A DNA stretch of 40,595 bases from a virus. Its lineage: Duplodnaviria; Heunggongvirae; Uroviricota; Caudoviricetes. Location: positions 1 to 40,595 of IMG/VR virus record IMGVR_UViG_2541047967_000005; one strand, given 5' to 3'. The notes beneath the pieces were generated by a model. It ran no database searches. It saw nothing but the letters and a program-made list of their open reading frames with translations, and was not told the origin of the DNA. The position numbers and the translations under genes are program-made. Below are positions 3,160-34,966 of the stretch, in pieces; within the stretch, counting starts at the first letter, position 1; each line of letters begins with the position of its first letter.

Positions 3160-5622
3160 TCAATTCCCTGTTAATTGCAAAACTTGCTCTTCCAGCTTTT
3201 TAACCCTGCGTCTCATCATCGCAGATTCCAGAATCAGAGCCTCTTCATAACGGATACCGTAACATTCACCAGCCTCGACGGCTTCGCGTACCAGAACCTT
3301 TGTCTGTATAAGTGGGTAAACTCCTGCAGAATGCTCTTCTTCCGTCACATCCCTGTATTCTGCCGGGGTCTCATTCCACTTGTCATAACAGATAAATGCC
3401 AGTCGTGACACATCTATGCCTTCATTCTGAAATACACTGATAACATGCTGCGCAACTGCACCAAAGTGCCATCTTGCTCCGTCTTTACCTTTCACTTCGA
3501 TCCTGTCAAGGTACTGGTATGAAACCCATTCCACTCTTTCCCATGCGTCCAGTATTTTCTCATCAATAACCTCTGGAGCAGTCTTGAAACGCGCATCGGA
3601 CAGCACCGTAAACGCTGACTGGGTAAATCCCCCCGACCATGCACGACCAGCCAACCCAAGAGAATAAGTATTCGTTGTCGATGGTGTCATGGCTGAATCA
3701 GAAAACTGTATATATTCTGAATTTCCAGTAGATATTCGAATATTTCCATTTATTAGCGACATAGTGCCTTTAGTATTATCACTATTGAATAATTTCAATT
3801 GCGAACTTATACCGCCTCCCACAGCCAGAGATACATCGCCTTCAGCAAGCATTCTGAATTTATCTGCAGAAACAAGCGTCTGGTTAGCAAGGTTAAAATA
3901 TTTAACCCACCATTCAAAACGCCCTGACATAGTCCCAACGTACTGACCAAGCGCAGGGACGTGAACAACATTGCTATTTGTAGTGCCGTCTATACTGGAA
4001 ATACCAGTCACCGCTGATGCAGAACTCAGAATATTATTTCTGTCACCCGGATGTTTAATTTCAACAAAGTTCCTGATACACCCTTCCTCGAAGGTAACCA
4101 CGCCGGAAGAACTATACATGGGGAATATTGACGCATAATTACTGCGTGCAGCATCTAAGAAACGAATGGTTGTAGATGCCTGCAGATCTCCTGATTCATT
4201 TTTCCCATCACACCCAGTCATTAGAATATTACTGGCAATATTATTATTTCCCTGAACGGTGACGCCGTGCGCCTGCTTTGCGTCCGATTCAGAGTAATCA
4301 ACCAGCACATCCGAAATCAGGTTACCAGTCCCCTTGCCAACAACTACTGCGGCGTATTTTGGGTTGTTAGCCATTACACTGCTAATGATATTATTCGTTG
4401 GGGCAGTTTCCGTCTCAGTTCCATTGTAAACAACGTGCTGACACTCTTCACCAATAACATTGCTGACAATGTTATATTTTGCTGCTGTTTTAAGTTCCAC
4501 TGCACCAAACTGAGGATAATTTCTGGCTATCACACCATCAATTAGCGTATTTTGCGATGAATCAAAAAGCACACAACCTGCTTTTTTATTATTTGCGAAC
4601 CCTAAATACTCTCCTCTTATATCTCTAACAATGTAACCTGACGGAATACCATTATCCGGATAAGCGATCAAGCTAAATCCTGGTCCTCGCGTATTTGTAA
4701 ATCTGATATTTTTAACCGATACATCATGGCCACCTGAAAATGACACCTGGTGTCCCTGCACACTATCATCTGATTTATTTCCCATAATTGTTAGCGTACT
4801 AAGCATGCCACCATCGGGCATGTTAAAAACCAGATGATTACCATCTCTGTCATACTGTTTTATCGTTCCCCCACCTGTTCCGTACAAGCCACAACGTGAA
4901 AGAGAAACTAAAGATGTATTGAATACCCCTTCCGGAACAAAAACACTGCTAAACGAATGTAATGATTTTGTAAAAGCATCCTTGTTATCATTTAAGATTC
5001 CATTTTGAGCTCCAAAATCCTTAATGCTGACACCATCACGCATCTTATCCTGGAACGTTCTGTATACCGCTCCAGAACCATACTGAATAAACCAACCAAA
5101 ACCACCAATAACTCCGGCGATTGCAGCATCGACATAATTACGCATTGAGCGATTATTTACAGCGTCCTGCTCAAGTGATGGATCGGCAAGGTTAGATATT
5201 CTGTTTTGCTTTGCATCGTAATATTTTGCAAGCAAAGATGGTTTCATCAATGCACGTCTGAACCACCCAAAACATCGCTGGATCAGCATCGTCAGGTAGT
5301 CAAATGCATCCTCATGAACTTCGGGGAAAAATTTTCCCTGATTGCGAAGATCAGTCTCCTGCACCACATCAAGCACACGCTCTATCGTGATTCGCCAGCC
5401 AGCAGCAAGCGGCGACGGAAGAACCACTGCACCGCCACTATAAGTTCCCGCCCCTGTTACCGTATAACCAGCATCCAGCACTAGTTTTGTAACGTTACCG
5501 TTAAGGTCAGACACCTGAACAACCAGGTCGGATTTTTTGAAAATACGGAAGGTATACGGAAATGATGTCGTAACGCCGTTACCTGTGTATTCGTTGTGGT
5601 CAACTTCGGTTGAGACCGTCAT
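3160..5622 (-). CDS. Tailspike / tail fiber with T7 gp17-like N-terminal anchor, central beta-helix domain and C-terminal S74 intramolecular chaperone
   Basis: N-terminus (YTGNGVTTSFPYTF ... RISNLADPSLEQDAV) resembles T7-type tail fiber N-domains; C-terminal ~146 aa (SDARFKTAPEVIDEKILDAWERV ... HFGAVAQHV ... coiled-coil tail) matches the endosialidase-chaperone S74 pattern; RBS ggag upstream. Confidence 0.8.
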   Translation of the reverse strand: MTVSTEVDHNEYTGNGVTTSFPYTFRIFKKSDLVVQVSDLNGNVTKLVLDAGYTVTGAGTYSGGAVVLPSPLAAGWRITIERVLDVVQETDLRNQGKFFPEVHEDAFDYLTMLIQRCFGWFRRALMKPSLLAKYYDAKQNRISNLADPSLEQDAVNNRSMRNYVDAAIAGVIGGFGWFIQYGSGAVYRTFQDKMRDGVSIKDFGAQNGILNDNKDAFTKSLHSFSSVFVPEGVFNTSLVSLSRCGLYGTGGGTIKQYDRDGNHLVFNMPDGGMLSTLTIMGNKSDDSVQGHQVSFSGGHDVSVKNIRFTNTRGPGFSLIAYPDNGIPSGYIVRDIRGEYLGFANNKKAGCVLFDSSQNTLIDGVIARNYPQFGAVELKTAAKYNIVSNVIGEECQHVVYNGTETETAPTNNIISSVMANNPKYAAVVVGKGTGNLISDVLVDYSESDAKQAHGVTVQGNNNIASNILMTGCDGKNESGDLQASTTIRFLDAARSNYASIFPMYSSSGVVTFEEGCIRNFVEIKHPGDRNNILSSASAVTGISSIDGTTNSNVVHVPALGQYVGTMSGRFEWWVKYFNLANQTLVSADKFRMLAEGDVSLAVGGGISSQLKLFNSDNTKGTMSLINGNIRISTGNSEYIQFSDSAMTPSTTNTYSLGLAGRAWSGGFTQSAFTVLSDARFKTAPEVIDEKILDAWERVEWVSYQYLDRIEVKGKDGARWHFGAVAQHVISVFQNEGIDVSRLAFICYDKWNETPAEYRDVTEEEHSAGVYPLIQTKVLVREAVEAGECYGIRYEEALILESAMMRRRVKKLEEQVLQLTGN

Positions 5623-5798: not shown

Positions 5799-5818
5799 AT
5801 TGCATGGAGAAGATTAAG

Positions 5819-6076
5819 ATGCAGCAGTATCACTATCCACTGGAAGAGGGATTTACCGAAAGGATTCACACGCCGGGAGGCGTCAGGTCACTGGTGGAGG
5901 GATCGCACTTGATGAAATTACTCCGGGATCTCGATAAGGATGGATTTAATGTCGATGGCCCACTTGCCGAACTGACTGCACTGATTAACTACGTCACCAG
6001 CTCACAGATGTCTATGCAGGATCTGCAAACACATCTCGACTATTGTGCCGAACAATTACGAAAACAAACCAGATAA
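5819..6076 (+). CDS. Small SOS-regulated anti-repressor-like protein (C-domain paralogue of the Bro proteins)
   Basis: RBS ggagaag 8 nt upstream of ATG 5819 (the track ORF starts at 5804, inside the RBS); C-terminal motif AELTALINYV ... DLQTHLDY parallels AELTTMFCYIV ... DIQTHAEY of both Bro-N proteins; LexA box directly upstream. Confidence 0.6.
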   Translation: MQQYHYPLEEGFTERIHTPGGVRSLVEGSHLMKLLRDLDKDGFNVDGPLAELTALINYVTSSQMSMQDLQTHLDYCAEQLRKQTR

Positions 6077-6212
6077 GATTTGAAATTACCAATAGGAGTG
6101 CTTATATTTACCTTTGCAGTAAATTTACATCGCACTCCTCTTGTGCCATAGTAATCGGGCACTGGCAAAATCCAGTGCCGGGATTGGCGTCCCGGGTTAC
6201 TAAGTGGCGCAT

Positions 6213-6235
6213 ACCACGCCAGACGTGGTTTTTTT
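6213..6235 (+). terminator. Rho-independent terminator inside the Bro1 leader
   Basis: ccacg ccaga cgtgg followed by seven T; a matching hairpin plus T-run sits at the mirrored position upstream of Bro2. Confidence 0.6.
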
Positions 6236-6391
6236 ATGCGTTAAGCACAGCTATATCCGAATTATGGTGGGCTGGGCAGGGGTCCGAAAGGACGCCGGTA
6301 CCACTTAGGCCGGTACGCCAACCTTGTCCAGTTCACCACCAGTAATTGGCGTTGCGGTGGTGATTAAAATCACTAAGTGGAGATAACCACC

Positions 6392-7102
6392 ATGGCTAAT
6401 GCTCAAACTGCCATCTTCAAATTTGAATCTGTTAACCCTATCCGTTCCATCATTATCGATGGCCAACCATGGTTTGTAGCCCAAGACGTTTGTAGTGCGC
6501 TGCGTATCCAAAACGTCACCCAAGCACTTGAAAAACTGGATGATGATGAAAGGTCTATGTTCAACATAGGGCATGAACATCGTGCAATTTTTGACAGCCG
6601 AGTAAAAGAGATCAACATTATCTCCGAGTCAGGCCTCTACACACTGATCCTCCGCTGCCGCGACGCAGTGACACCAGGCACTATCCCCTACCGCTTTCGT
6701 AAATGGGTTACAGGTGAGGTTCTTCCTCAGATCCGCCGCACCGGAAGTTACATTAAAAACTCGCTCCCGCAGGAAGAACGCATAAAGATGGTTGCCGACC
6801 AGGTAGCCAACGCCACGGCGTCAGCAGTAATGCAGGCGATGAAGATAGAGAACAAAACCTACAGCGCCCCACTGAAGCCCGGCTACCGCAGCCTGATTCA
6901 TTCGCCGTCTGGTGTTCTCGGCCTGACGGAGAACTCACTGCTGATGAATCTGCTGAACCAGTTACAGGAAGACGGGCACGATGTATCGGGCGCGGCGGCG
7001 GAGCTGACCACCATGTTCTGCTACATCGTCGGTGTGAGCAAATGCCTGCGTGATATCCAGACCCACGCGGAGTACATCAACGACAAAGCAGGATTCTTCT
7101 GA
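6392..7102 (+). CDS. Bro-N domain anti-repressor-like protein (paralogue 1)
   Basis: RBS ggag 9 nt upstream of ATG 6392; Bro-N pattern (IFKFESVNPIRSIIIDGQPWFVAQDVCSAL); C-terminal 158 aa identical to the 8373-9059 product. Confidence 0.75.
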   Translation: MANAQTAIFKFESVNPIRSIIIDGQPWFVAQDVCSALRIQNVTQALEKLDDDERSMFNIGHEHRAIFDSRVKEINIISESGLYTLILRCRDAVTPGTIPYRFRKWVTGEVLPQIRRTGSYIKNSLPQEERIKMVADQVANATASAVMQAMKIENKTYSAPLKPGYRSLIHSPSGVLGLTENSLLMNLLNQLQEDGHDVSGAAAELTTMFCYIVGVSKCLRDIQTHAEYINDKAGFF

Positions 7103-7174
7103 CGGGCGGCGGCACAGGGATGTGCCTTTAAATAATTCTGTACAGATTGCAGACCGGGGGTGAATAGCGTACTA

Positions 7175-7189
7175 TTACCTTAAAGGTAA
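7175..7189. promoter_or_regulatory. Operator-like palindrome TTACC-N5-GGTAA upstream of the cargo cassette
   Basis: ttaccttaaaggtaa, about 45 nt upstream of the 7232 start. Confidence 0.5.
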
Positions 7190-7231: not shown

Positions 7232-7558
7232 ATGACAAAACTTGGATTCGTGATGAGAGGTCCGGTAAGAAGCGGAACTCATGCAAAGCGTAGCAAGAGT
7301 CGTATTTTTACTGGTAAGGTTGTAGCACGTAAATCAGCTATTGGCTCGTTCAATAGTGAAAATGCGGCATTGCGCCATATTTTTATCAGCACAAAGCCAA
7401 GAGCATCCGCTGATGTGCATACAATGTCTATTCCTATCACAAAGAATATCAAGCGGATAAAAAAGCTCTCATCTGCAGAATCAAAAGAGATATCTTTCCG
7501 CCAGCTTAACTCATTAGAAACGCATATGAAGGAAGAGGAATTCGATGTTTTTGAGTGA
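7232..7558 (+). CDS. Basic 108-aa protein of unknown function; first gene of the low-GC two-gene cassette (candidate antitoxin/immunity partner)
   Basis: RBS ggag 7 nt upstream; Lys/Arg-rich N-terminus, acidic C-terminus (EEEFDVFE); AT-rich with AGA codons; 3' end overlaps the next gene by 14 nt. Confidence 0.5.
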   Translation: MTKLGFVMRGPVRSGTHAKRSKSRIFTGKVVARKSAIGSFNSENAALRHIFISTKPRASADVHTMSIPITKNIKRIKKLSSAESKEISFRQLNSLETHMKEEEFDVFE

Positions 7559-8057
7559 GTATAGCGGGAAGGTTATACCTACTGGTGAGTTTAAAACTGA
7601 TGACTTTCTGATTTCGCTAAAAGATGCTTTTAAACAACACTGGCGTCATGGTCATCATCCTGATCTGGGAAAAGATACTCTTTTTGAAAGACCAGACGAA
7701 GTATTAGGCTTCCATCTCAGAAAGGTTCATGTCAATATTGGTGAATATGCATCATATTCATACTCATGTACTGAACAGTGTTGGGATGAGTGGTCATATG
7801 GATTGATTGATGAACAAGGAAATTACAGGCCAAAACCAACCAGTAACGCATATCTCATATATGCAGTCAATGAAATAAGAGATGCAGCCTTACTAGCTTA
7901 TTGGGACCCGCCCGCACACACCAAAGCTAACGCAAAAGTTTGGATGGATTCCGTATTGAATTTCACAAAATTATTTCATGAACGAACGAATACAGCTCCA
8001 CTTAGTAGAAATGTTTATCCGTGGGATTATTCGTACAAATCCAAAAAGCCTGCATAG
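7545..8057 (+). CDS. 170-aa protein of unknown function; second gene of the cassette (candidate toxin/effector, possibly YafO-like)
   Basis: Strong RBS ggaagagga upstream of ATG 7545; translationally coupled to the upstream ORF; low GC; motifs (LFERPDEVLGFHL ... AYLIYAV ... ALLAYWDPPAH) loosely recall YafO-family toxins from memory, not verified. Confidence 0.5.
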   Translation: MFLSEYSGKVIPTGEFKTDDFLISLKDAFKQHWRHGHHPDLGKDTLFERPDEVLGFHLRKVHVNIGEYASYSYSCTEQCWDEWSYGLIDEQGNYRPKPTSNAYLIYAVNEIRDAALLAYWDPPAHTKANAKVWMDSVLNFTKLFHERTNTAPLSRNVYPWDYSYKSKKPA

Positions 8058-8138
8058 TAGTTTTTTATGGACGAAACAAAAGTCAGTGCTACACTCATTG
8101 ACGCCACATTGAGGTGGCTTATAGATGGAAATTTCACA

Positions 8139-8300
8139 ATGAAAAAAGCATTTGCTGCACTGTTCGTTTTGTTGTCTCTGGTAGCTTCAACTCAGGCCTT
8201 TGCCGGTCGTTGTCAGCACGACAGCGACACTGCTGCTGACGGCTCCCGCTGCGGTGGGCGTTCTGCGGATTCCCGCCCTGGCGGCGGTGGCATTCGTTAA
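8139..8300 (+). CDS. Small secreted Cys/Gly/Arg-rich peptide (~53 aa precursor), unknown function
   Basis: Internal ATG followed by a signal peptide (MKKAFAALFVLLSLVASTQAFA) and ~31-aa mature part; weak RBS, so the call is tentative; the track ORF starts at 8067. Confidence 0.35.
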   Translation: MKKAFAALFVLLSLVASTQAFAGRCQHDSDTAADGSRCGGRSADSRPGGGGIR

Positions 8301-8335: not shown

Positions 8336-8372
8336 GATAGTTTCGTTTTGCACATCCCTGTGCCGCCGCCCG

Positions 8373-9059
8373 TCAGAAGAACCCTGCCTTGTCGTTGATG
8401 TACTCCGCGTGCGTCTGGATATCACGCAGGCATTTGCTCACACCAACGATGTAGCAGAACATGGTGGTCAGCTCCGCCGCCGCGCCCGATACATCGTGCC
8501 CGTCTTCCTGTAACTGGTTCAGCAGATTCATCAGCAGTGAGTTCTCCGTCAGGCCGAGAACACCCGACGGAGAATGAATCAGGCTGCGGTAGCCGGGCTT
8601 CAGTGGGGCACTGTAGGTTTTGTTCTCTATCTTCATCGCCTGCATTACTGCTGACGCCGTGGCGTTGGCTACCTGGTCGGCAACCATCTTTATGCGTTCT
8701 TCCTGCGGGAGCGAGTTTTTAATGTAACTTCCGGTGCGGCGGATCTGAGGAAGAACCTCACCCGTAACCCATTTACGAAAGCGGTAGGGGATAGTGCCTG
8801 GTGTCACCGCATCGCGGCAGCGGAGGATCAGTGTGTAGAGGCCTGACTCGTTGATAATATTGGTTTCGCCTTGACGGCCTAAGTTAAATTTAGCCCTTTC
8901 ATCATCATCAAGAGATTTTATTGACATAGTGGGGTTTGTCAGTTGAAGAGCTTTAATAACGTCTTTGGCAACAAACCAAGGATTTCCATCAATAACAATG
9001 GCTCGAATGGTTGCCTCTGATTCAAAATGAAAAACAGATGGGGTTACGTTAGCAGTCAT
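8373..9059 (-). CDS. Bro-N domain anti-repressor-like protein (paralogue 2)
   Basis: Internal ATG (MTANVTPSVFHFESE...) with RBS aggtga; Bro-N pattern (IDGNPWFVAKDVIKAL); C-terminal 158 aa identical to Bro1. Confidence 0.75.
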   Translation of the reverse strand: MTANVTPSVFHFESEATIRAIVIDGNPWFVAKDVIKALQLTNPTMSIKSLDDDERAKFNLGRQGETNIINESGLYTLILRCRDAVTPGTIPYRFRKWVTGEVLPQIRRTGSYIKNSLPQEERIKMVADQVANATASAVMQAMKIENKTYSAPLKPGYRSLIHSPSGVLGLTENSLLMNLLNQLQEDGHDVSGAAAELTTMFCYIVGVSKCLRDIQTHAEYINDKAGFF

Positions 9060-9325
9060 AGTGATCACCTTTGTAGTTAGGTTAATCACCACTACCGACG
9101 CCAATCGGTTGGTGGTGAACTGTGCAGGGTTGGCGTAACCGGCTACAAAGGACCCGGCGCACCTTTCGGTGCCCCCACACAGCCCACCATAGAATAGGTG
9201 CGCTTTACACATAAAAAAACCGCTTATGCGGCATATGTGCCTCTGTAGTAACCCAGGACGCCAATCCCGGCACTGGATTTTGCCAGTGCCTGATTACTAT
9301 GGCACAAGAGGAGTGCGATGTAAAT

Positions 9326-9340
9326 TTACCGAAAAGGTAA
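9326..9340. promoter_or_regulatory. Operator-like palindrome TTACC-N5-GGTAA upstream of the Bro2 leader
   Basis: ttaccgaaaaggtaa; the mirrored site in the left arm (6108-6122, ttacctttgcagtaa) has one mismatch. Confidence 0.5.
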
Positions 9341-9487: not shown

Positions 9488-9841
9488 GTGCCATTCCACG
9501 GCGCAGAACTTTATGTTGTCAATCACAACGGAGAACCGTACACCCCAATGAAACCTATCGTTGAAGGCATGGGTATGGATTGGGCTTCACAGTTTACGAA
9601 AATGAAGCAGCGGTTTAAAACCTGCATTGTGAAAATCACAATGCAGCTTCCTGGGGATGAACAGCGCCGTGAGATTATTTGTTTGGCACTTCGCAAACTT
9701 GCTGGCTGGTTGCAAACCATCAGCCCTAACAAAGTCCGCCCTGAAATCCGCGAAAGTATTGAAACATCAACCGTGTCGATATCGACACGGTTGATTATGA
9801 CGGTAACTTATTGCCGTGTGTCCTATTTCTCCCACCACTAA
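9488..9841 (+). pseudogene. Remnant of a P22 Ant-type anti-repressor (N-terminal domain only)
   Basis: GTG start with no RBS; FHGAELYVVNHNGEPYTPMKPIVEGMGMDW ... LRKLAGWLQTISPNKVRPEIRE resembles the Ant N-terminal domain, then degenerates and stops after ~117 codons; no C-terminal domain in any frame. Confidence 0.45.
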
Positions 9842-16918: not shown

Positions 16919-19389
16919 CAGAATCCCCCAACAGTAAGGCGAGGAATAACGGCAAGAACAGACAGCGGCAACGGGTCAAGCTGACGGATTTTTACACGTC
17001 CGTTTTTGCCCCAGTTACTGTCCAGTTTCACTTCTACTTTTCCGGTAGCATCATCAACAGGATCATCGTAGAACTCGAATTCACGCTGTGGATATTCGTA
17101 CCATTTACCGCCGGGCGTAGTCGCCCAGATGCCGCGACTGGCATTCACAACCAGAGTAACGGACGGGATCACCTGTTTTTTGTCCAGCAGCGTTTCCTGT
17201 CCGCTAATGTTGATATCCAGTGTTTCGAATTCAGCAGTTATTGGCAGGCCGATGTGCACTACAGCCCCCGGAGATTCCAGCGTGACGGCACCTCCGGAAA
17301 CAACTTTCTGTGGTTCCACGTTCGCATCAGAGAGAATGTTTACGGTCTGGCCTTCAAGATGAGACAGGCCTCCAAATGTCCGGCGCGCCATCTGCCAGTT
17401 CGTGGTGGCCACATTCCTGAGGGATGATGGGACGTTCCTGTTAGGACGAACCACTACAGCGGTATTGCTGGTTACAGAAATAATGTCGCAACGTAATTCT
17501 TTTGACACTTCATCGCCAGTATCAGGATCAGTTCCGGTATAAGGGAATTGTAGTTGCGCACCGACATCACTACTGGTGAAGTACGCACCACCAGAAATAC
17601 TGATTGTATATTCCGCGCGGTAATCCCATTCACCAGAACCACCAGTGATGGTCATCGTTCTGTCAGACGTATTTCTTCCATCATAGCTAAGGCCAGAATC
17701 AACAAAGAAAGCATCTTCATCGCTGGTAAATAAACGGCTGGACAGTCGCTCGATGTATCTCACTGTTTGCCCGTTAACGGTTCGGTTAACGACGAAATAC
17801 ACCGCATCTTCATTTCCTTCGCTGATACTGCATGTGCTTTCATATTTTCCGGTACTGGATTGTGGTGCCCATGCAAAAACCTGCTGATCACGCAAATAGG
17901 TCATCACCAGTAATTTACCGTCATCACGAATGCAGAAGGCGCTGGAGTAAGGGACAATAGAGAAGCACCAGTCAACAATACTGTGCTTCTGAAAAAGATG
18001 ATTGGCAAGGATAGTAAGGTCGTTCCCCTGATAGCCGTCAACATCGAATGAGTAGGCCAGATCACGGACAACACTGCCTTTCTCCTGGACGAACAGAGCA
18101 ATATTCGCCACGGCAATTGGTGGGACATTGCTCGAGCCATTTGATCCCTGAGAGCTGAATGCAAATGATGATGGGGTAAGCACTTTGTTCTGGTCGCCAG
18201 TGATGACGTACTCACCTCCGGAAGTCAGCGCCACCAGCGAACCAACATCAATCAGGTGACGGATCTCATTAACCTGACGCCCGGCATAGGTGTAGATAAT
18301 TCTGTCGTCATCCTGCGTAGGATTGCTTTTGCCAAAATCCTTATAATCCCCGGTACGGCTGACCCAGATAGTCTGAGGGAACGCAGTCGATGCGGCGAAG
18401 TAAAGACGTTGTTGATAATAAACAACAGTGCCAGGATAACCATTAACACTGTTCCAGGCATATTTAGCCCATTTATAGCTGGCATTATCCTCGCCAACTA
18501 CCTGCGAAGGGATATAGGAAATCACCTCGGCAGTTGCAGTAGTTCCATTTGCAGCAGTGATACGGGCAATGCCAAAACCACTGTGCAGATATTCCCACTC
18601 AATGCCAGTATCATCATCACCGGATCCGCCCCAGCCATCCCATGATGTGCCTTCTGTATGCGAAGGGCGCAAAGTGCCTGTTTTGCCTACTGTAACGGCG
18701 CGATAGTAGTTACTGTCTGCACGGCGAATATCGCCAATTGACGTACTCTTACTGGTTTCCCATACCGGCACAGAATCCACTGCAGGCTGTTCCAGATAGA
18801 ACAATTTGCCTACCTGCTCCGCGCCAAAAATAGAGGCGCTTGCCGTTAACGTAATTGTCCCGGTGCTGGCGCTGGCATAAACCGTCACTGACTCGTCAAT
18901 ATTGATATCTTCAAATGGTCCGTTCTTCGTTACCACATCAACCAGTTGCCAGTTGTCATGCGCATAGCGACGCAACTCTTTCGGCGGGTATGCCGGATGA
19001 ACAAGCGTAAGCACGTCGGCGCTTTGCGTGAATTTAATTCGGAACAGATCGGCTTCAGTATATGGCGTGGCAATTTCATAAATAACATTGCTGCTGTTCA
19101 GCACCAACGCACCATCTTTGATAACGCGCATGTACTGGTGTCCGAACTCCAGAGCATAGGTCTGAACCGTCGAGAACTGGAACGGGATCAGGCGGCATTT
19201 CCGATTTGGGTATTTGGCGGCACCGACAAAACGCGTACCAGGTCGATTCTCAACGCCGCCATACTGCCGCACGATAAAGTTATCGCACTTGCGCAATGCC
19301 ACCTGGTACTTCGCCATGTCGATACGACCGTACAACGACGGTCCAATCTCACCACCGGCAAAGCTGGGCTGGATCCAACTGATAGCCAT
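16918..19389 (-). CDS. Tail tubular protein B-like / nozzle protein (823 aa)
   Basis: Size and position (after a ~200-aa gene, before internal proteins) match the T7 gp11/gp12 arrangement. Confidence 0.55.
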   Translation of the reverse strand: MAISWIQPSFAGGEIGPSLYGRIDMAKYQVALRKCDNFIVRQYGGVENRPGTRFVGAAKYPNRKCRLIPFQFSTVQTYALEFGHQYMRVIKDGALVLNSSNVIYEIATPYTEADLFRIKFTQSADVLTLVHPAYPPKELRRYAHDNWQLVDVVTKNGPFEDINIDESVTVYASASTGTITLTASASIFGAEQVGKLFYLEQPAVDSVPVWETSKSTSIGDIRRADSNYYRAVTVGKTGTLRPSHTEGTSWDGWGGSGDDDTGIEWEYLHSGFGIARITAANGTTATAEVISYIPSQVVGEDNASYKWAKYAWNSVNGYPGTVVYYQQRLYFAASTAFPQTIWVSRTGDYKDFGKSNPTQDDDRIIYTYAGRQVNEIRHLIDVGSLVALTSGGEYVITGDQNKVLTPSSFAFSSQGSNGSSNVPPIAVANIALFVQEKGSVVRDLAYSFDVDGYQGNDLTILANHLFQKHSIVDWCFSIVPYSSAFCIRDDGKLLVMTYLRDQQVFAWAPQSSTGKYESTCSISEGNEDAVYFVVNRTVNGQTVRYIERLSSRLFTSDEDAFFVDSGLSYDGRNTSDRTMTITGGSGEWDYRAEYTISISGGAYFTSSDVGAQLQFPYTGTDPDTGDEVSKELRCDIISVTSNTAVVVRPNRNVPSSLRNVATTNWQMARRTFGGLSHLEGQTVNILSDANVEPQKVVSGGAVTLESPGAVVHIGLPITAEFETLDINISGQETLLDKKQVIPSVTLVVNASRGIWATTPGGKWYEYPQREFEFYDDPVDDATGKVEVKLDSNWGKNGRVKIRQLDPLPLSVLAVIPRLTVGGF

Positions 19390-25163: not shown

Positions 25164-25200
25164 TTGACATTTAACGCGCGAATTATTACCTTTCAGGTAA
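25164..25200 (+). promoter_or_regulatory. Candidate promoter (-35 TTGACA) with operator-like palindrome TTACC-N5-GGTAA
   Basis: ttgaca at 25164-25169; ttacctttcaggtaa at 25186-25200; lies in a 400-bp non-coding region upstream of the tRNA. Confidence 0.4.
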
Positions 25201-25522: not shown

Positions 25523-25599
25523 GTGGCATTAGCTCAGTTGGACAGAGCAACCGCCTTCTAAGCGGTTGGTCGCAGGTTCGAATCCTGCATGCCACGCCA
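25523..25599 (+). tRNA. tRNA-Arg (anticodon UCU), argU-like
   Basis: 77 nt folded by hand: 7-bp acceptor stem gtggcat/atgccac, D stem gctc/gagc, anticodon stem accgc/gcggt with loop cttctaa (TCT), T arm gcagg-ttcgaat-cctgc, 3' GCCA. Confidence 0.85.
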
Positions 25600-30155: not shown

Positions 30156-30785
30156 TCACTCTCCTTTGATGCGAATGCCAGCGGCGCGCTCGGCTTTACT
30201 TTGTTCCCAAAACCACTTGTGAAGCTCCATAAGCTTTTCGTCAATCGGTGCATATTTGCGATTAAAGTAGGCCTGAGCATCTTTCTCAGATTCGTCCGGC
30301 AATTCGCCTGGGCCAAACAGTGTGTTATAAATCCATGCCAGTCCGCTCTTAGCGTCGCCAGTTGCCTGCCATTCGATAATCGCAGCCTGCATGACCAGAA
30401 TGTTTTTCCCGATTAACAGGTCCAGTTCTTTGTACCGGTTGCGGATGTATGCATTCTCGCTTTGTAATTTTGCGTTGCGCTTCTCTGCGGCTTCCAGCTC
30501 AACACGCAGCTTCCCTACCGTTAGCGCAATATCCTCGTTCTCCTGGTCACGGCGTTTGATGTATTGCTGGTTTCTTTCCAGTTCATCCAGTAATGCCAAA
30601 GCAACCTTTGGATTAAAGGCAGCAATAAATTCAGCGTTGTTTTTCAGAACGTGTTGCGCAATGGCCTGACCACTTAGTCGGACCTTATAACCACGTGCGC
30701 CACGGTGTGGTTTATATGAGTCCCAGTCTCCCCACGTTGCTTTTTCTGCCTTTTCACGCAGTGCCTGATAGTTAATCTCGCTCAC
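30156..30785 (-). CDS. Ead/Ea22-like coiled-coil protein
   Basis: N-terminus MSEINYQALREKAEKATWGDW and central coiled coil typical of lambdoid Ead/Ea22-like proteins. Confidence 0.45.
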   Translation of the reverse strand: MSEINYQALREKAEKATWGDWDSYKPHRGARGYKVRLSGQAIAQHVLKNNAEFIAAFNPKVALALLDELERNQQYIKRRDQENEDIALTVGKLRVELEAAEKRNAKLQSENAYIRNRYKELDLLIGKNILVMQAAIIEWQATGDAKSGLAWIYNTLFGPGELPDESEKDAQAYFNRKYAPIDEKLMELHKWFWEQSKAERAAGIRIKGE

Positions 30786-33951: not shown

Positions 33952-33974
33952 GAAAAGACCGCCGGATGGCGGTC
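33952..33974 (-). terminator. Rho-independent terminator after the Cro-like gene
   Basis: Minus strand: gaccgcc atcc ggcggtc followed by tttt. Confidence 0.5.
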
Positions 33975-33996
33975 TACAGAGGGTTGTTGCCAGATA

Positions 33997-34381: not shown

Positions 34382-34966
34382 ATGAAAAGTATCCAGGACG
34401 TCCGCAGGCAAAATCTCAACGACTTGATCGACCGTGAATTCAATGGTGTTCAGACGCGGATGGCAGAAAAACTTGGAACTCAGGCAAATCTGGTAAACCG
34501 CTGGGCTCTTGGCAAGAAGGTTATCGGCGACCAGGTTGCGCGAAAAATTGAAGCTGCCGCCAATAAACCCCGTAACTGGCTTGATATCGATCGCTCGCTT
34601 TCTCAGGAAGGTTTTCAGCCTGTCGGCCCAAGCGACATTGGTCAGCTGGCAGCTCACAACCTGGAACGCTGGATGAGTGAAAGCCGCGACCTTTCAACTC
34701 AGGGAAAACTTCACCGCGCATCCGGCGTCGCCCAGGTGACAATAAGCCGCCTGTTAAACAATGAGGTCAGCGTTTCCATTTCCACCCTGGAGAATGTTGC
34801 ATCTGCATTCGGGCGTCACGGATATGAACTACTGATTCATCCGCATGACCCTGCGACCATCAACTATGATCGCTCGCGCTACGCATTGTTACCCGAAACC
34901 GAGAAAGCAAAGATCGAAAGTTACATTGAATTTGTCATCAACCAGAACGAAAAAAACAAACAATAA
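34382..34966 (+). CDS. Prophage repressor-like protein with two HTH segments and no LexA-type peptidase domain
   Basis: 194 aa; HTH-like segments GVQTRMAEKLGTQANLVNRWALGKK and GVAQVTISRLLNNEV; no S24 autopeptidase motifs seen; divergent from the Cro-like gene. Confidence 0.5.
   Translation: MKSIQDVRRQNLNDLIDREFNGVQTRMAEKLGTQANLVNRWALGKKVIGDQVARKIEAAANKPRNWLDIDRSLSQEGFQPVGPSDIGQLAAHNLERWMSESRDLSTQGKLHRASGVAQVTISRLLNNEVSVSISTLENVASAFGRHGYELLIHPHDPATINYDRSRYALLPETEKAKIESYIEFVINQNEKNKQ

Follow-up and report, generated by a model that had tools for sequence, protein, structure and literature searches.

Two Bro-N antirepressor-type genes, found in the window (the whole 40,595-nucleotide stretch of phage DNA analysed here), are each preceded by a leader which very probably is an antisense-RNA module of the P1 immI type, silencing the Bro-N antirepressor. 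Its main predicted action is the masking of the bro Shine-Dalgarno sequence, rather than attenuation at the terminator. Family membership, structure, complementarity, three-way covariation, Shine-Dalgarno overlap and the operator-like motif are established; every function assigned to the phage module is predicted from homology and complementarity. Judged by these features, the structured leader is a known phage RNA switch, made of P1 c4 and of the a1b1/IsrK decoy, and not a new element: a real but ordinary module, present in two copies with two different target specificities.

Arrangement of the leader modules

The source phage is an epsilon15/phiV10-like integrating podovirus. Gene 1 (6392-7102, plus strand, 236 aa) and gene 2 (8373-9059, minus strand, 228 aa) had both been called Bro-N in a preliminary description of this DNA, and both match Pfam Bro-N, with E 9.6e-20 (also given as about 1e-20) for the former and 5.2e-20 for the latter. 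The two proteins share 83% of their residues over the whole length, and from residue 75 of gene 1 on they hardly differ. Relatives such as TL-2011b feature a P22-type Arc-Ant module where the window has the second Bro-N module.

The same series of parts is found 5' of both genes: palindrome, promoter, hairpins, intrinsic terminator and structured RNA. The mirrored copy 2, already noticed in the preliminary description, was confirmed on the minus strand at about 9060-9340 by inverted repeats (I2-I7) and by pairwise alignment; the two modules, within one genome, are convergently oriented and carry two b specificities. Relative to dinucleotide shuffles, the 261-nt leaders have folding z-scores of -5.0 and -6.1. 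Rfam covariance models match copies 1 and 2 with E about 1e-11 to 1e-15, far beyond chance: isrK (RF01394) is found at 6159-6235 (copy 1) and 9289-9213 (copy 2), and the C4 antisense RNA (RF01695) at 6260-6343 on the plus strand and 9194-9108 on the minus strand, all above the curated Rfam thresholds.

Between 6000 and 9450, no Rfam family other than isrK, C4 and c4-a1b1 was found at E <= 1; a sar-like opposite-strand RNA, a riboswitch and other families were discarded on this basis. The analogy to P22 sar, suggested in the preliminary description, fails here. P22 immI is similar in that a podovirus antirepressor gene is under small RNA control (sar; Arc/Mnt on ant), but sar is read from the strand opposite to ant, over that gene's ribosome-binding site, while the regulator proposed here lies on the same strand as its target, and upstream of it. 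Likewise, no pair of opposite-strand promoter and terminator was found at the bro starts by the promoter/terminator scan.

Putative operator and promoters

The palindrome lying on the promoter side of both leaders, earlier termed operator-like, belongs to an enriched motif: TTACC-N5-GGTAA, with at most one mismatch, is present at 15 sites in the window vs 0.58 expected (26-fold enrichment). The motif scan located it at 6108-6122 in copy 1 (TTACCTTTGCAGTAA), directly 5' of the -35 hexamer, and at 9326-9340 in copy 2 (TTACCGAAAAGGTAA), so that one palindrome per copy adjoins the -35 of the leader promoter; further copies flank an HTH_3 repressor-like gene (34382-34966). This distribution points to the palindrome as a putative operator of the main repressor of the phage.

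In copy 1, the promoter scan identified a sigma-70-like promoter, TTTACA-17-CATAGT with a TG extension (6124-6152, plus strand), and the transcription start predicted from it, at ~6159, is position 1 of the isrK model. By pairwise alignment the promoter stretch is identical in copy 2, where TTTACA-17-CATAGT is located at 9296-9324 on the minus strand, with a predicted start at ~9289. Each copy also has a second promoter-like site, at 6080-6108 in copy 1, where its -10 touches the putative operator, and at 9369-9340 in copy 2.

The predicted short RNA and its terminator

The isrK/c4-a1b1 RNA extends over 6159-6235 (plus strand) in copy 1 and 9213-9289 (minus strand) in copy 2, scoring 67.7 and 72.2 bits against RF01394 (threshold 50); the IsrK 5' halves of the two copies are identical. 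Hfq binding of isrK, like trans-activation of antirepressor translation by its short form, is known only from work in Salmonella. In copy 1 it is composed of hairpin 1 (6159-6178), hairpin 2 (6179-6194) and its own intrinsic terminator; the 8-bp stem-loop described earlier (ggcactgg/caaaat/ccagtgcc, 6158-6179) is borne out by the sequence, and both hairpins show compensatory changes among related leaders. The c4-a1b1 model (RF03163) is matched over its full length (1-53), with 44.1 bits in copy 1 and 40.2 bits in copy 2, narrowly below the gathering score of 46.7; as the same bases pass the isrK model, this is one and the same element.

The terminator of copy 1 (6213-6236, plus strand), at the 3' end of the short RNA, consists of ACCACG-CCAGA-CGTGGT (6213-6229) followed by T7 (6230-6236); placed here also by the preliminary description, it was independently found by the terminator scan, as was that of copy 2 (9232-9219, minus strand, with the T run extending to 9212). 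The predicted 77-nt isrK/c4-a1b1 RNA would correspond to the short transcript ending at 6235 which that description had envisaged. The regulator, however, had been placed before the terminator: the hairpins found there carry the putative decoy sites a1 and b1, while the antisense regulator, c4, is downstream of the terminator. By homology it is the ~150-nt leader, whose blocks tggtgggctg (6265-6274) and ccgaaagg (6285-6292) are present as described, that holds the actual antisense regulator, c4, at about 6266-6340.

The C4 antisense RNA

In copy 1 the C4 RNA occupies 6266-6340 (plus strand), its ends being set by homology with the annotated 77-nt P1 c4; in copy 2 it occupies 9111-9188 (minus strand). 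The RF01695 scores are 66 bits (E 8.6e-11) and 79.5 bits (E 3.9e-14), against a threshold of 45, and both matches take in the whole model (positions 1-87 of 87). When 6266-6340 and 9188-9111 are folded, the MFE structures show the features of the family: a long closing stem, two hairpins, and a single-stranded junction after hairpin 2. Compensatory changes in c4 P1 and P2 were detected by RNAalifold on 32 leaders.

Two segments of C4 are complementary to sites outside it. In copy 1, b' (CCACTTAG, 6301-6308, plus strand) is inside the 11-nt loop of hairpin 2 (6299-6309), and a' (ACGCCAA, 6315-6321, plus strand) is in the single-stranded junction; in copy 2, on the minus strand, the b' core CCTTTGTAG is at 9151-9143 and a' (ACGCCAA) at 9136-9130. 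The AU/GGUGGG 5' context and the CACCACC 3' end of the window C4s match P1, and may be taken as sequence hints of excision. C4 is processed by RNase P, and its b' occludes the ribosome-binding site, according to the summary given in PMC5320573.

Predicted target sites and specificity

The junction ACGCCAA is complementary to UUGGCGU at a1 and a2 in both copies. In copy 1, a1 (TTGGCGT, 6184-6190, plus strand) is in the loop of hairpin 2 of the short RNA, with a duplex energy of -10.3 kcal/mol, and a2 (TTGGCGT, 6346-6352, plus strand) is in the loop of a small hairpin that closely follows c4; this a2 hairpin shows compensatory changes among related leaders. In copy 2 the corresponding minus-strand sites are at 9264-9258 (a1) and 9098-9104 (a2, TTGGCGT).

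The b sites differ. The copy-1 loop CCACUUAG is complementary to CUAAGUGG at both b1 (6200-6207) and b2 (6373-6380), which read CTAAGTGG on the plus strand and form the direct repeat D1; the b1 duplex has an energy of -12.6 kcal/mol. In copy 2 the loop CCUUUGUAG is complementary to CUACAGAGG and CUACAAAGG; on the minus strand, b1 (CTACAGAGG) is located at 9248-9240, its duplex with b' having an energy of -13.9 kcal/mol, and b2 (CTACAAAGG) at 9068-9076, with -12.0 kcal/mol. In both window copies b2 overlaps GGAG or AAGG, 9-12 nt 5' of the ATG: in copy 1 the Shine-Dalgarno GGAG (6379-6382, ATG at 6392), in copy 2 the Shine-Dalgarno AAGGTGA (ATG at 9059). It is therefore proposed that pairing at b2 would block ribosome binding, and that the antirepressor would not be made.

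Duplexes between loop and Shine-Dalgarno have energies of -12.6 and -12.0 kcal/mol for the cognate combinations; non-cognate ones reach -4.7 kcal/mol, and -9.1 kcal/mol at a site away from the Shine-Dalgarno. Since the a sites are shared, while the b sites differ (CCACUUAG:CUAAGUGG vs CCUUUGUAG:CUACAAAGG), the two copies are probably orthogonal, like P1 and P7, and each C4 would probably silence its own bro gene only; the identical a sites make some cross-talk possible. When the window was scanned for extra trans targets of both C4s, combined a and b sites were found at the four expected places only; isolated 8-9-mers, such as those at 7998-8005, 30670-30677 and 33974-33982, have no a site and look like chance. 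RNAcofold, applied to mature C4 with mRNA or IsrK segments, gave ddG near 0 and 2-3 intermolecular pairs; it is uninformative here because loop-to-strand contacts need opened hairpins, and loop-only duplex energies were used instead.

Survey of related loci

In about 170 related phage and bacterial loci, a change in the loop goes along with matching changes in its targets; the two locus sets, independent of each other, each contain over 40 distinct loop sequences. Loops vary in length and register, and a register-free comparison of own and swapped loops was used in place of MAFFT column counts. Of the 116 non-identical loci in the viral set, carrying 75 different loops, 56% have a loop able to form 8 or more uninterrupted pairs both at b1 and at b2, against 1.5% for loops from other loci. 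The bacterial genomes were chosen by the isrK motif, independently of the viral set; the genome scan yielded 99 species, with no Salmonella among the 80 listed. Here at least 7 nt are paired at both sites in 58 out of 59 loci, against 20 out of 570 with swapped loops (43 distinct loops). Covariation, proposed in the preliminary description as a check on the structured leader, is thus found both as compensatory changes in the hairpins and as joint variation of loop and targets.

The other parts are conserved as well: TTGGC is present at the a1 place in all 77 related loci examined for it and at +20 to +25, the a2 place, in 72 of the 77, and across the survey loci b2 consistently lies over the Shine-Dalgarno, 6-12 nt before the start codon. 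Antirepressor-type genes found 3' of related loci encode Bro-N (18), Rha (14), ORF6N (7), P22_AR (4) and KilA-N (1) proteins. By sequence comparison, the architecture a1b1/IsrK, terminator, c4, a2b2 is conserved in P1, podoviruses, Stx phages and prophages of many Proteobacteria.

These results bear on another alternative, namely that hairpins and terminator merely end the upstream gene (5804-6076), the conserved blocks being a passive leader or a decayed remnant. That gene does end at a distance of 80 nt, and the terminator at 6213 is the first to be predicted after it; but a promoter separates it from the hairpins, copy 2 lacks a comparable gene upstream on its own strand, and both copies give two full-length family matches. 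The three-way covariation, with its more than 40 specificities per set, already contradicts this alternative, which is extremely improbable.

Comparison with known systems

The annotated immI region of P1 includes the Oc4 operator, promoters, a1, b1, c4, a2, b2 and icd-ant, with a terminator-like hairpin between b1 and c4; on P1, the Rfam models score 68.8 (C4), 51 (c4-a1b1) and 35.1 bits (isrK). The c4 antisense RNA of P1 and P7, with the sites a1, b1, a2 and b2, was reportedly described by Citron and Schuster in 1990 as controlling icd-ant. The direct c4 target in P1 is the leader gene icd, ant then being turned off through Rho-dependent polarity; Biere and coworkers are said to have found, in 1992, that Rho-dependent termination finally shuts off P1 ant.

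The analogy to P1 c4 drawn in the preliminary description holds, and amounts to homology, given the C4 scores and the same order of parts; the placement of the regulator in that description has to be abandoned. The P1/P7 immI regions and the window leaders share the RNA family and the full series of operator (putative in the window), promoter(s), hairpin, a1 loop, b1, terminator-like hairpin, c4, a2, b2 and gene; in both, b' is in the hairpin 2 loop and a' in the junction, b2 lies over the Shine-Dalgarno, and the target is an antirepressor operon. Between P1 and P7 a few loop bases set the specificity, and the same is predicted between the window copies. Differences concern the pairing sequences (a/a' is UUGACAG/CUGUCAA in P1, UUGGCGU/ACGCCAA in the window, and b also differs) and the host phage, which for the window is an integrating podovirus and not a P1-like plasmid prophage. 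Moreover, the window module is doubled, and the ribosome-binding site predicted to be masked is the Bro-N antirepressor's own: an icd-like ORF is absent from the window leaders, and the step from pairing to silencing may therefore differ from that in P1.

The Gifsy-1 locus has, after IsrK, a stable RNA made by processing, STnc1160, with the antirepressor gene anrP behind it (PMC4825925); both RNAs are highly expressed in lysogens (PMC7067206). When supplied in trans, IsrK turns on translation of anrP (Hershko-Shalev et al. 2016, PMC4825925); according to that study it acts via refolding of the long mRNA and leader ORF translation, not via titration of free C4, nor was its effect countered when the STnc1160 region was co-expressed (PMC4825925). 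The locus resembles the window leaders, besides their isrK matches, in having a short RNA with its own terminator, read-through of which yields the antirepressor mRNA (in the window, by prediction), a stable processed RNA between isrK and the antirepressor gene (predicted from sequence for the window), and complementarity of the middle of IsrK to a downstream segment.

Taken literally, the Gifsy-1 model would have the read-through mRNA of the window locked in an inactive state by cis pairing of IsrK with its downstream part; translation of a leader ORF would be coupled to that of the antirepressor, and the segment between terminator and gene would be mRNA, not a free antisense RNA. Both copies are indeed isrK family members, and an experimental model is at hand (PMC4825925). 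Folding also lends it some weight: the copy-2 read-through transcript, at its MFE, pairs a1b1 with a'b' in cis and does not form c4, which makes the amount of mature C4 uncertain. Furthermore, GGTGGTGA (6356-6363, plus strand) is able to base-pair with 6333-6340, the 3' strand of the stem that closes c4, forming around the a2 hairpin an alternative helix which competes with that stem and is conserved (81.6% of cells paired, both-side changes in 5 of 8 pairs, 32 leaders). An AUG is found at +106 (copy 1) and +100 (copy 2) of the predicted start, orf45 of Gifsy-1 being at +107.

As published, however, the Gifsy-1 mechanism relies on coupling of anrP to a leader ORF of 45 codons that is translated, while the ORF from the corresponding AUG of the window has 14 (copy 1) or 15 (copy 2) codons and stops in the loop carrying b', over 80 nt short of the start of bro: translational coupling is therefore implausible here. 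A leader peptide was also rejected as a conserved coding feature, the ORF ranging erratically from 14 to more than 200 codons across the 77 loci, and orf45 itself being conserved in nucleotide, not in amino-acid sequence, according to a review. The segment at issue scores as a full-length C4 with compensatory changes, and the co-variation of the b2 site at the antirepressor Shine-Dalgarno with the loop is left unexplained by the Gifsy-1 model, which is quite unlikely to apply as such. The survey speaks for IsrK of Salmonella and a1b1 of P1 being one element. It likewise speaks for the "orf45/STnc1160" segment of Gifsy-1 as a c4 RNA, an equivalence based on the isrK match and on the description in PMC4825925; that paper does not name STnc1160 as a c4 homologue, but notes a parallel with P4 (PMC4825925). 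Masking of the Shine-Dalgarno by a free C4 is preferred for the window.

A control of the type exerted by the CI RNA of satellite phage P4 would be compatible with such masking. C4 would pair with a1b1 and a2b2 on nascent RNA and enforce termination, intrinsic after b1 and/or Rho-dependent, so that control of bro would be largely transcriptional, as in the attenuation envisaged by the preliminary description. A terminator straight after b1, preceding c4, is present in 69 of the 77 related loci, as in P1, and the reported final shut-off of P1 ant by Rho would fit. In P4 a processed leader RNA pairs with two sites flanking the regulator, seqA 5' and seqC 3', an arrangement likened by the Gifsy-1 authors to IsrK/STnc1160 (PMC4825925); yet its outcome is premature transcription termination of a replication operon, not masking of an antirepressor ribosome-binding site. 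In Gifsy-1, IsrK in trans raised anrP transcription 8-fold, against a translational effect of 139-fold (PMC4825925). The consistent position of b2 over the Shine-Dalgarno, 6-12 nt before the start, argues for a translational target, and no convincing conserved antiterminator, disrupted by b1 pairing, was found by eye in either copy: bases flanking b1 and the 5' arm of the terminator offer only 4-bp possibilities, and the terminators align poorly. Read-through of the terminator may play a regulatory part; termination as the main mode of control is possible but doubtful.

Proposed mechanism

Transcription would start at ~6159 (~9289 in copy 2), from the promoter adjoining the putative operator of the main repressor. 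The first 77 nt, corresponding to isrK/c4-a1b1, would present the decoy a1 in a hairpin loop, then b1, and end at their own intrinsic terminator. Read-through transcripts would hold c4, which, by homology with P1, may be excised, RNase P making the 5' end. The product would be a stable RNA of ~75-78 nt, with a long closing stem and two hairpins, whose a' in the junction (ACGCCAA) and b' in the hairpin 2 loop would pair with a2 and b2, which follow closely on the mRNA. The antirepressor would thus be silenced in cis, as would that of an incoming phage of the same b specificity. The short a1b1 RNA, having the same a and b as the mRNA target, would compete for C4, and could relieve repression, as has been reported of IsrK in Gifsy-1. 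Processing, translational block, decoy role and orthogonality in vivo are what we infer from the features observed in the leaders.

It may further be speculated that the two modules form a coupled two-channel switch, the b loop and its two targets constituting a rapidly diversifying anti-immunity code with dozens of classes, although we regard this as rather unlikely. Each C4 would then shut off its own Bro-N, along with incoming phages that match it, both C4s could be partly titrated by either decoy via the common a site, and once one module was induced, the other would respond at a lower threshold; the differing N-terminal domains of the two Bro-N proteins would address different repressors.

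Two orthogonal modules in one genome may offer a natural system for tests of specificity and cross-talk. A specialist in phage immunity would not be surprised by the c4/IsrK modules found here, or by the survey, and the practical value lies mainly in annotation, as unannotated or hypothetical segments can be recognized as c4/IsrK control of an antirepressor. In this phage and its relatives phiV10, TL-2011b and E. coli prophages, the c4/IsrK segments are unannotated or called hypothetical proteins.

Identity of the leader RNAs

The leaders lying 5' of the two Bro-N genes (copy 1, + strand; copy 2, - strand) are real and strongly supported features, which, judged from sequence, appear functional on every comparative criterion. 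All the parts listed in the preliminary description were found where it had placed them, among them an 8-bp hairpin (6158-6179) and a terminator (6213-6236) in copy 1; the conserved blocks and the mirrored copy at about 9060-9340 were equally confirmed. Both 261-nt leaders are folded far more stably than their shuffled controls (z-scores -5.0 and -6.1).

When the whole window was scanned with Rfam, each leader turned out to consist of two curated families, both over their gathering scores: isrK (RF01394, threshold 50 bits), at 6159-6235 on the + strand (67.7 bits) and 9289-9213 on the - strand (72.2 bits), and the C4 antisense RNA (RF01695, threshold 45 bits), at 6260-6343 on the + strand (66.0 bits) and 9194-9108 on the - strand (79.5 bits). 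A search at permissive threshold added only matches to c4-a1b1 (RF03163), described by Rfam as "a1, b1 targets of C4 antisense RNA": these cover the same bases as isrK and score 44.1 and 40.2 bits, slightly below the 46.7 threshold. The roles originally given to the parts were thus incomplete: the "hairpin plus terminator" corresponds to isrK/a1b1, and the "150-nt leader with conserved blocks" to c4. The proposed analogy to P1 c4 is borne out by the C4 matches in both copies; that to P22 sar finds no support, as only isrK, C4 and c4-a1b1 match, even at permissive threshold.

isrK (no clan) and c4-a1b1 (clan CL00128) overlap at 6159-6235 and 9213-9289 of the window, and at 18218-18312 of phage P1. 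By sequence they appear to be one element under two names, and the Gifsy-1 'orf45/STnc1160' segment is therefore most likely a c4 RNA. The family has been known since 1990 through P1 c4 and since 2008-2016 through isrK, and routine Rfam scanning would pick up the leaders. Novelty is limited to the new host-phage group, the direct targeting of a Bro-N gene and the presence of two specificities in one genome.

Order of the parts and operator sites

The P1 annotation lists, in order, the C1 operator Oc4, promoters P2c4 and P1c4, a1 and b1, the 77-nt C4 RNA, a2 and b2, and icd-ant; the P1 sequence features two hairpins ahead of b1, the second holding a1 in its loop, and a terminator-like hairpin separating b1 from c4. 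P1 scores 68.8 bits for C4, 51 for c4-a1b1 and 35.1 for isrK. Both copies in the window show the same order. Each begins with a palindrome, TTACC-N5-GGTAA (6108-6122 and 9326-9340), next to which a promoter scan located TTTACA-17-CATAGT, whose predicted start is position 1 of the isrK model. The a1 site (UUGGCGU) occupies the loop of hairpin 2 and is followed by b1, the terminator, c4, a2 (UUGGCGU, in the loop of a small hairpin) and b2, 9-12 nt ahead of the start codon.

The window contains 15 copies of the palindrome, where 0.58 would be expected. These sites, within 5495-35100, are dispersed over the genome and often paired, about 48-62 bp apart (for example 5727, 6108, 7175, 9326, 25186, 28335/28353, 31919/31981, 33927, 34264/34312, 35024/35086); several flank an HTH_3 repressor-like gene (34382-34966). 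They probably represent the operator set of the main, prophage repressor, scattered as the C1 operators are in P1. One site (25186-25200) lies upstream of a phage-borne tRNA-Arg gene (25523-25599; anticodon UCU), which reads the rare AGA codon.

Complementarity and covariation

The loop of c4 hairpin 2 is UACCACUUAGG in copy 1 and GUCCUUUGUAG in copy 2, with b' cores CCACUUAG and CCUUUGUAG. In copy 1, b1 (6200-6207) and b2 (6373-6380) both read CUAAGUGG; in copy 2, b1 is CUACAGAGG, with one G-U pair, and b2 is CUACAAAGG. b2 overlaps the Shine-Dalgarno sequence, GGAG in copy 1 and AAGG in copy 2. In both copies the a' junction ACGCCAA complements the UUGGCGU of a1 and a2.

The same relations were examined in 120 viral contigs chosen by a C4-like pattern, which gave 116 non-identical loci and 75 different loops. 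In 56% of these loci the loop can form at least 8 contiguous pairs with both the b1 and the b2 position of its own locus; with loops borrowed from other loci the figure is 1.5%. In these loci b1 sits at fixed offsets from hairpin 2, about -95 or -136, and b2 at +48 to +58, abutting or overlapping the Shine-Dalgarno sequence in every case. A second, independent set, bacterial genomes picked by the isrK hairpin-1/a1 motif, spans 99 species, from Enterobacterales to Xanthomonas, Aeromonas and Thalassospira; among its 59 loci with a strict c4 pattern downstream (43 distinct loops), 58 feature complementarity of at least 7 nt at both sites, compared with 20 of 570 loop-swapped combinations. An intrinsic terminator separates b1 from c4 in 69 of 77 well-defined loci. 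The genes following related loci are of antirepressor type (Bro-N 18, Rha 14, ORF6N 7, P22_AR 4, KilA-N 1); some loci precede small ORFs without Pfam match, part of which we suspect to be icd-like.

In an alignment of 32 diverse leaders, compensatory changes affect isrK hairpins 1 and 2, c4 P1 and P2, and the a2 hairpin. An alternative helix, 6333-6340 with 6356-6363 (9118-9111 with 9093-9086 in copy 2), is formed by the 3' strand of the c4 closing stem and the downstream GGUGGUGA, and encloses the a2 hairpin. It is conserved in the 32 leaders (81.6% paired, both-side changes in 5 of 8 pairs); it and the c4 fold are mutually exclusive, and it may decide between c4 processing and intact mRNA.

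Predicted specificity of the two copies

By pairwise alignment, the leaders are nearly identical from the operator through hairpin 2. The divergent stretch runs from b1 to the N-terminal Bro-N domain and takes in the terminator, c4, the a2 hairpin and b2; beyond it the copies are again 97% identical. Stem differences are compensatory, and those in b1, b' and b2 agree with one another inside each copy. The C4 RNAs of copies 1 and 2 form duplexes of -12.6 and -12.0 kcal/mol with their own bro ribosome-binding sites; copy-2 C4 reaches only -4.7 kcal/mol on the copy-1 site, and copy-1 C4 pairs with the copy-2 mRNA at -9.1 kcal/mol, off the Shine-Dalgarno sequence. Because of this difference between cognate and non-cognate energies, orthogonality of the modules is predicted at the ribosome-binding site, as between P1 and P7. 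Cross-talk is possible via the a pairing (-10.3 kcal/mol), common to both.

Proposed mechanism

The best-supported mechanism is that of P1 immI, modified for a gene that lacks an icd leader. C4 would be processed out of read-through transcripts; for P1 C4, RNase P makes the 5' end (PMC5320573). Its a' and b' would pair with a2 and b2, blocking ribosome binding on the bro gene, and the short terminated RNA, having the same a and b sites, should compete for C4. Such competition would fit the Gifsy-1 experiments, where IsrK supplied in trans raises antirepressor translation 139-fold, and isrK is separated from anrP by STnc1160, a processed stable RNA; the authors remarked on the complementarity and on the parallel with P4 seqA/CI/seqC (PMC4825925). 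In lysogens, IsrK and STnc1160 are abundant (PMC7067206).

A translated orf45 is part of the published Gifsy-1 model (PMC4825925). A conserved leader peptide of this type was rejected here: the homologous AUG ORF has only 14 or 15 codons, ending in the b' loop, and the length of the orf45 equivalent is erratic across loci; the peptide is therefore judged to lie outside the conserved mechanism. Besides the proposed translational block by C4, there could be a transcriptional component, either termination that depends on C4, the P4 mode, or Rho polarity, the P1 mode.

The phage and its Bro-N genes

The window is a temperate podovirus genome or prophage, similar to epsilon15, phiV10 and TL-2011b. 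The Bro-N genes, at 6392-7102 (+; Pfam E about 1e-20) and 9059-8373 (-; E about 5e-20), are convergent. Their products differ over the first 70-75 residues and are almost the same thereafter: the C-terminal two thirds of both genes form a 518-nt, 97% inverted repeat (6608-7125 and 8350-8867), a near-identity that suggests recent gene conversion, or cassette exchange replacing the leader and N-terminal domain only.

The repeat brackets a 1.2-kb cargo segment, and homologous recombination between its arms would invert the cargo, leaving both Bro-N genes intact. The cargo (7232-8300) contains three ORFs: one of 108 aa (7232-7558), overlapping the next, a weakly YafO-toxin-like one (7545-8057; Pfam 19.7 bits, under the 25-bit cut-off), and one of 77 aa (8067-8300), whose shorter TL-2011b homologue is annotated as 'putative transmembrane anchored protein'. 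An operator palindrome (7175-7189) precedes the first cargo ORF, so the repressor may control this segment.

Beside copy 2, ORF 9488-9841 encodes only a P22_AR_N antirepressor N-terminal domain (E 1e-31), and the annotation of an E. coli prophage calls its counterpart an incomplete pseudogene. The ORF looks like what is left of a P22-type ant module whose place the second Bro-N module took. A perfect 30-bp palindrome (ATCAACCGTGTCGAT/ATCGACACGGTTGAT, 9766-9795) lies within or at the end of this ORF.

Distribution

The full double arrangement is rare, being found in 2 of 5426 complete E. coli genomes; parts of it occur in 990. In relatives, the second position is usually taken by a P22-type Arc-Ant or an ORF6N gene. 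On a further viral contig, two c4 modules share a strand (4098-4127 and 7357-7386) but differ in loop (TTTCCGTAC and ATGTTTCGA), and downstream of each a protein of about 182-185 aa is encoded. The window is thus not alone in having double modules of distinct specificity. The isrK-c4 leader was found in 253 phage records. In Stx-converting phages such as VT2-Sakai (17183-17418) it lies 5' of ant, within the nin region; orf34, the 57-aa hypothetical protein annotated over the c4 segment there, is probably a mis-annotated RNA gene.
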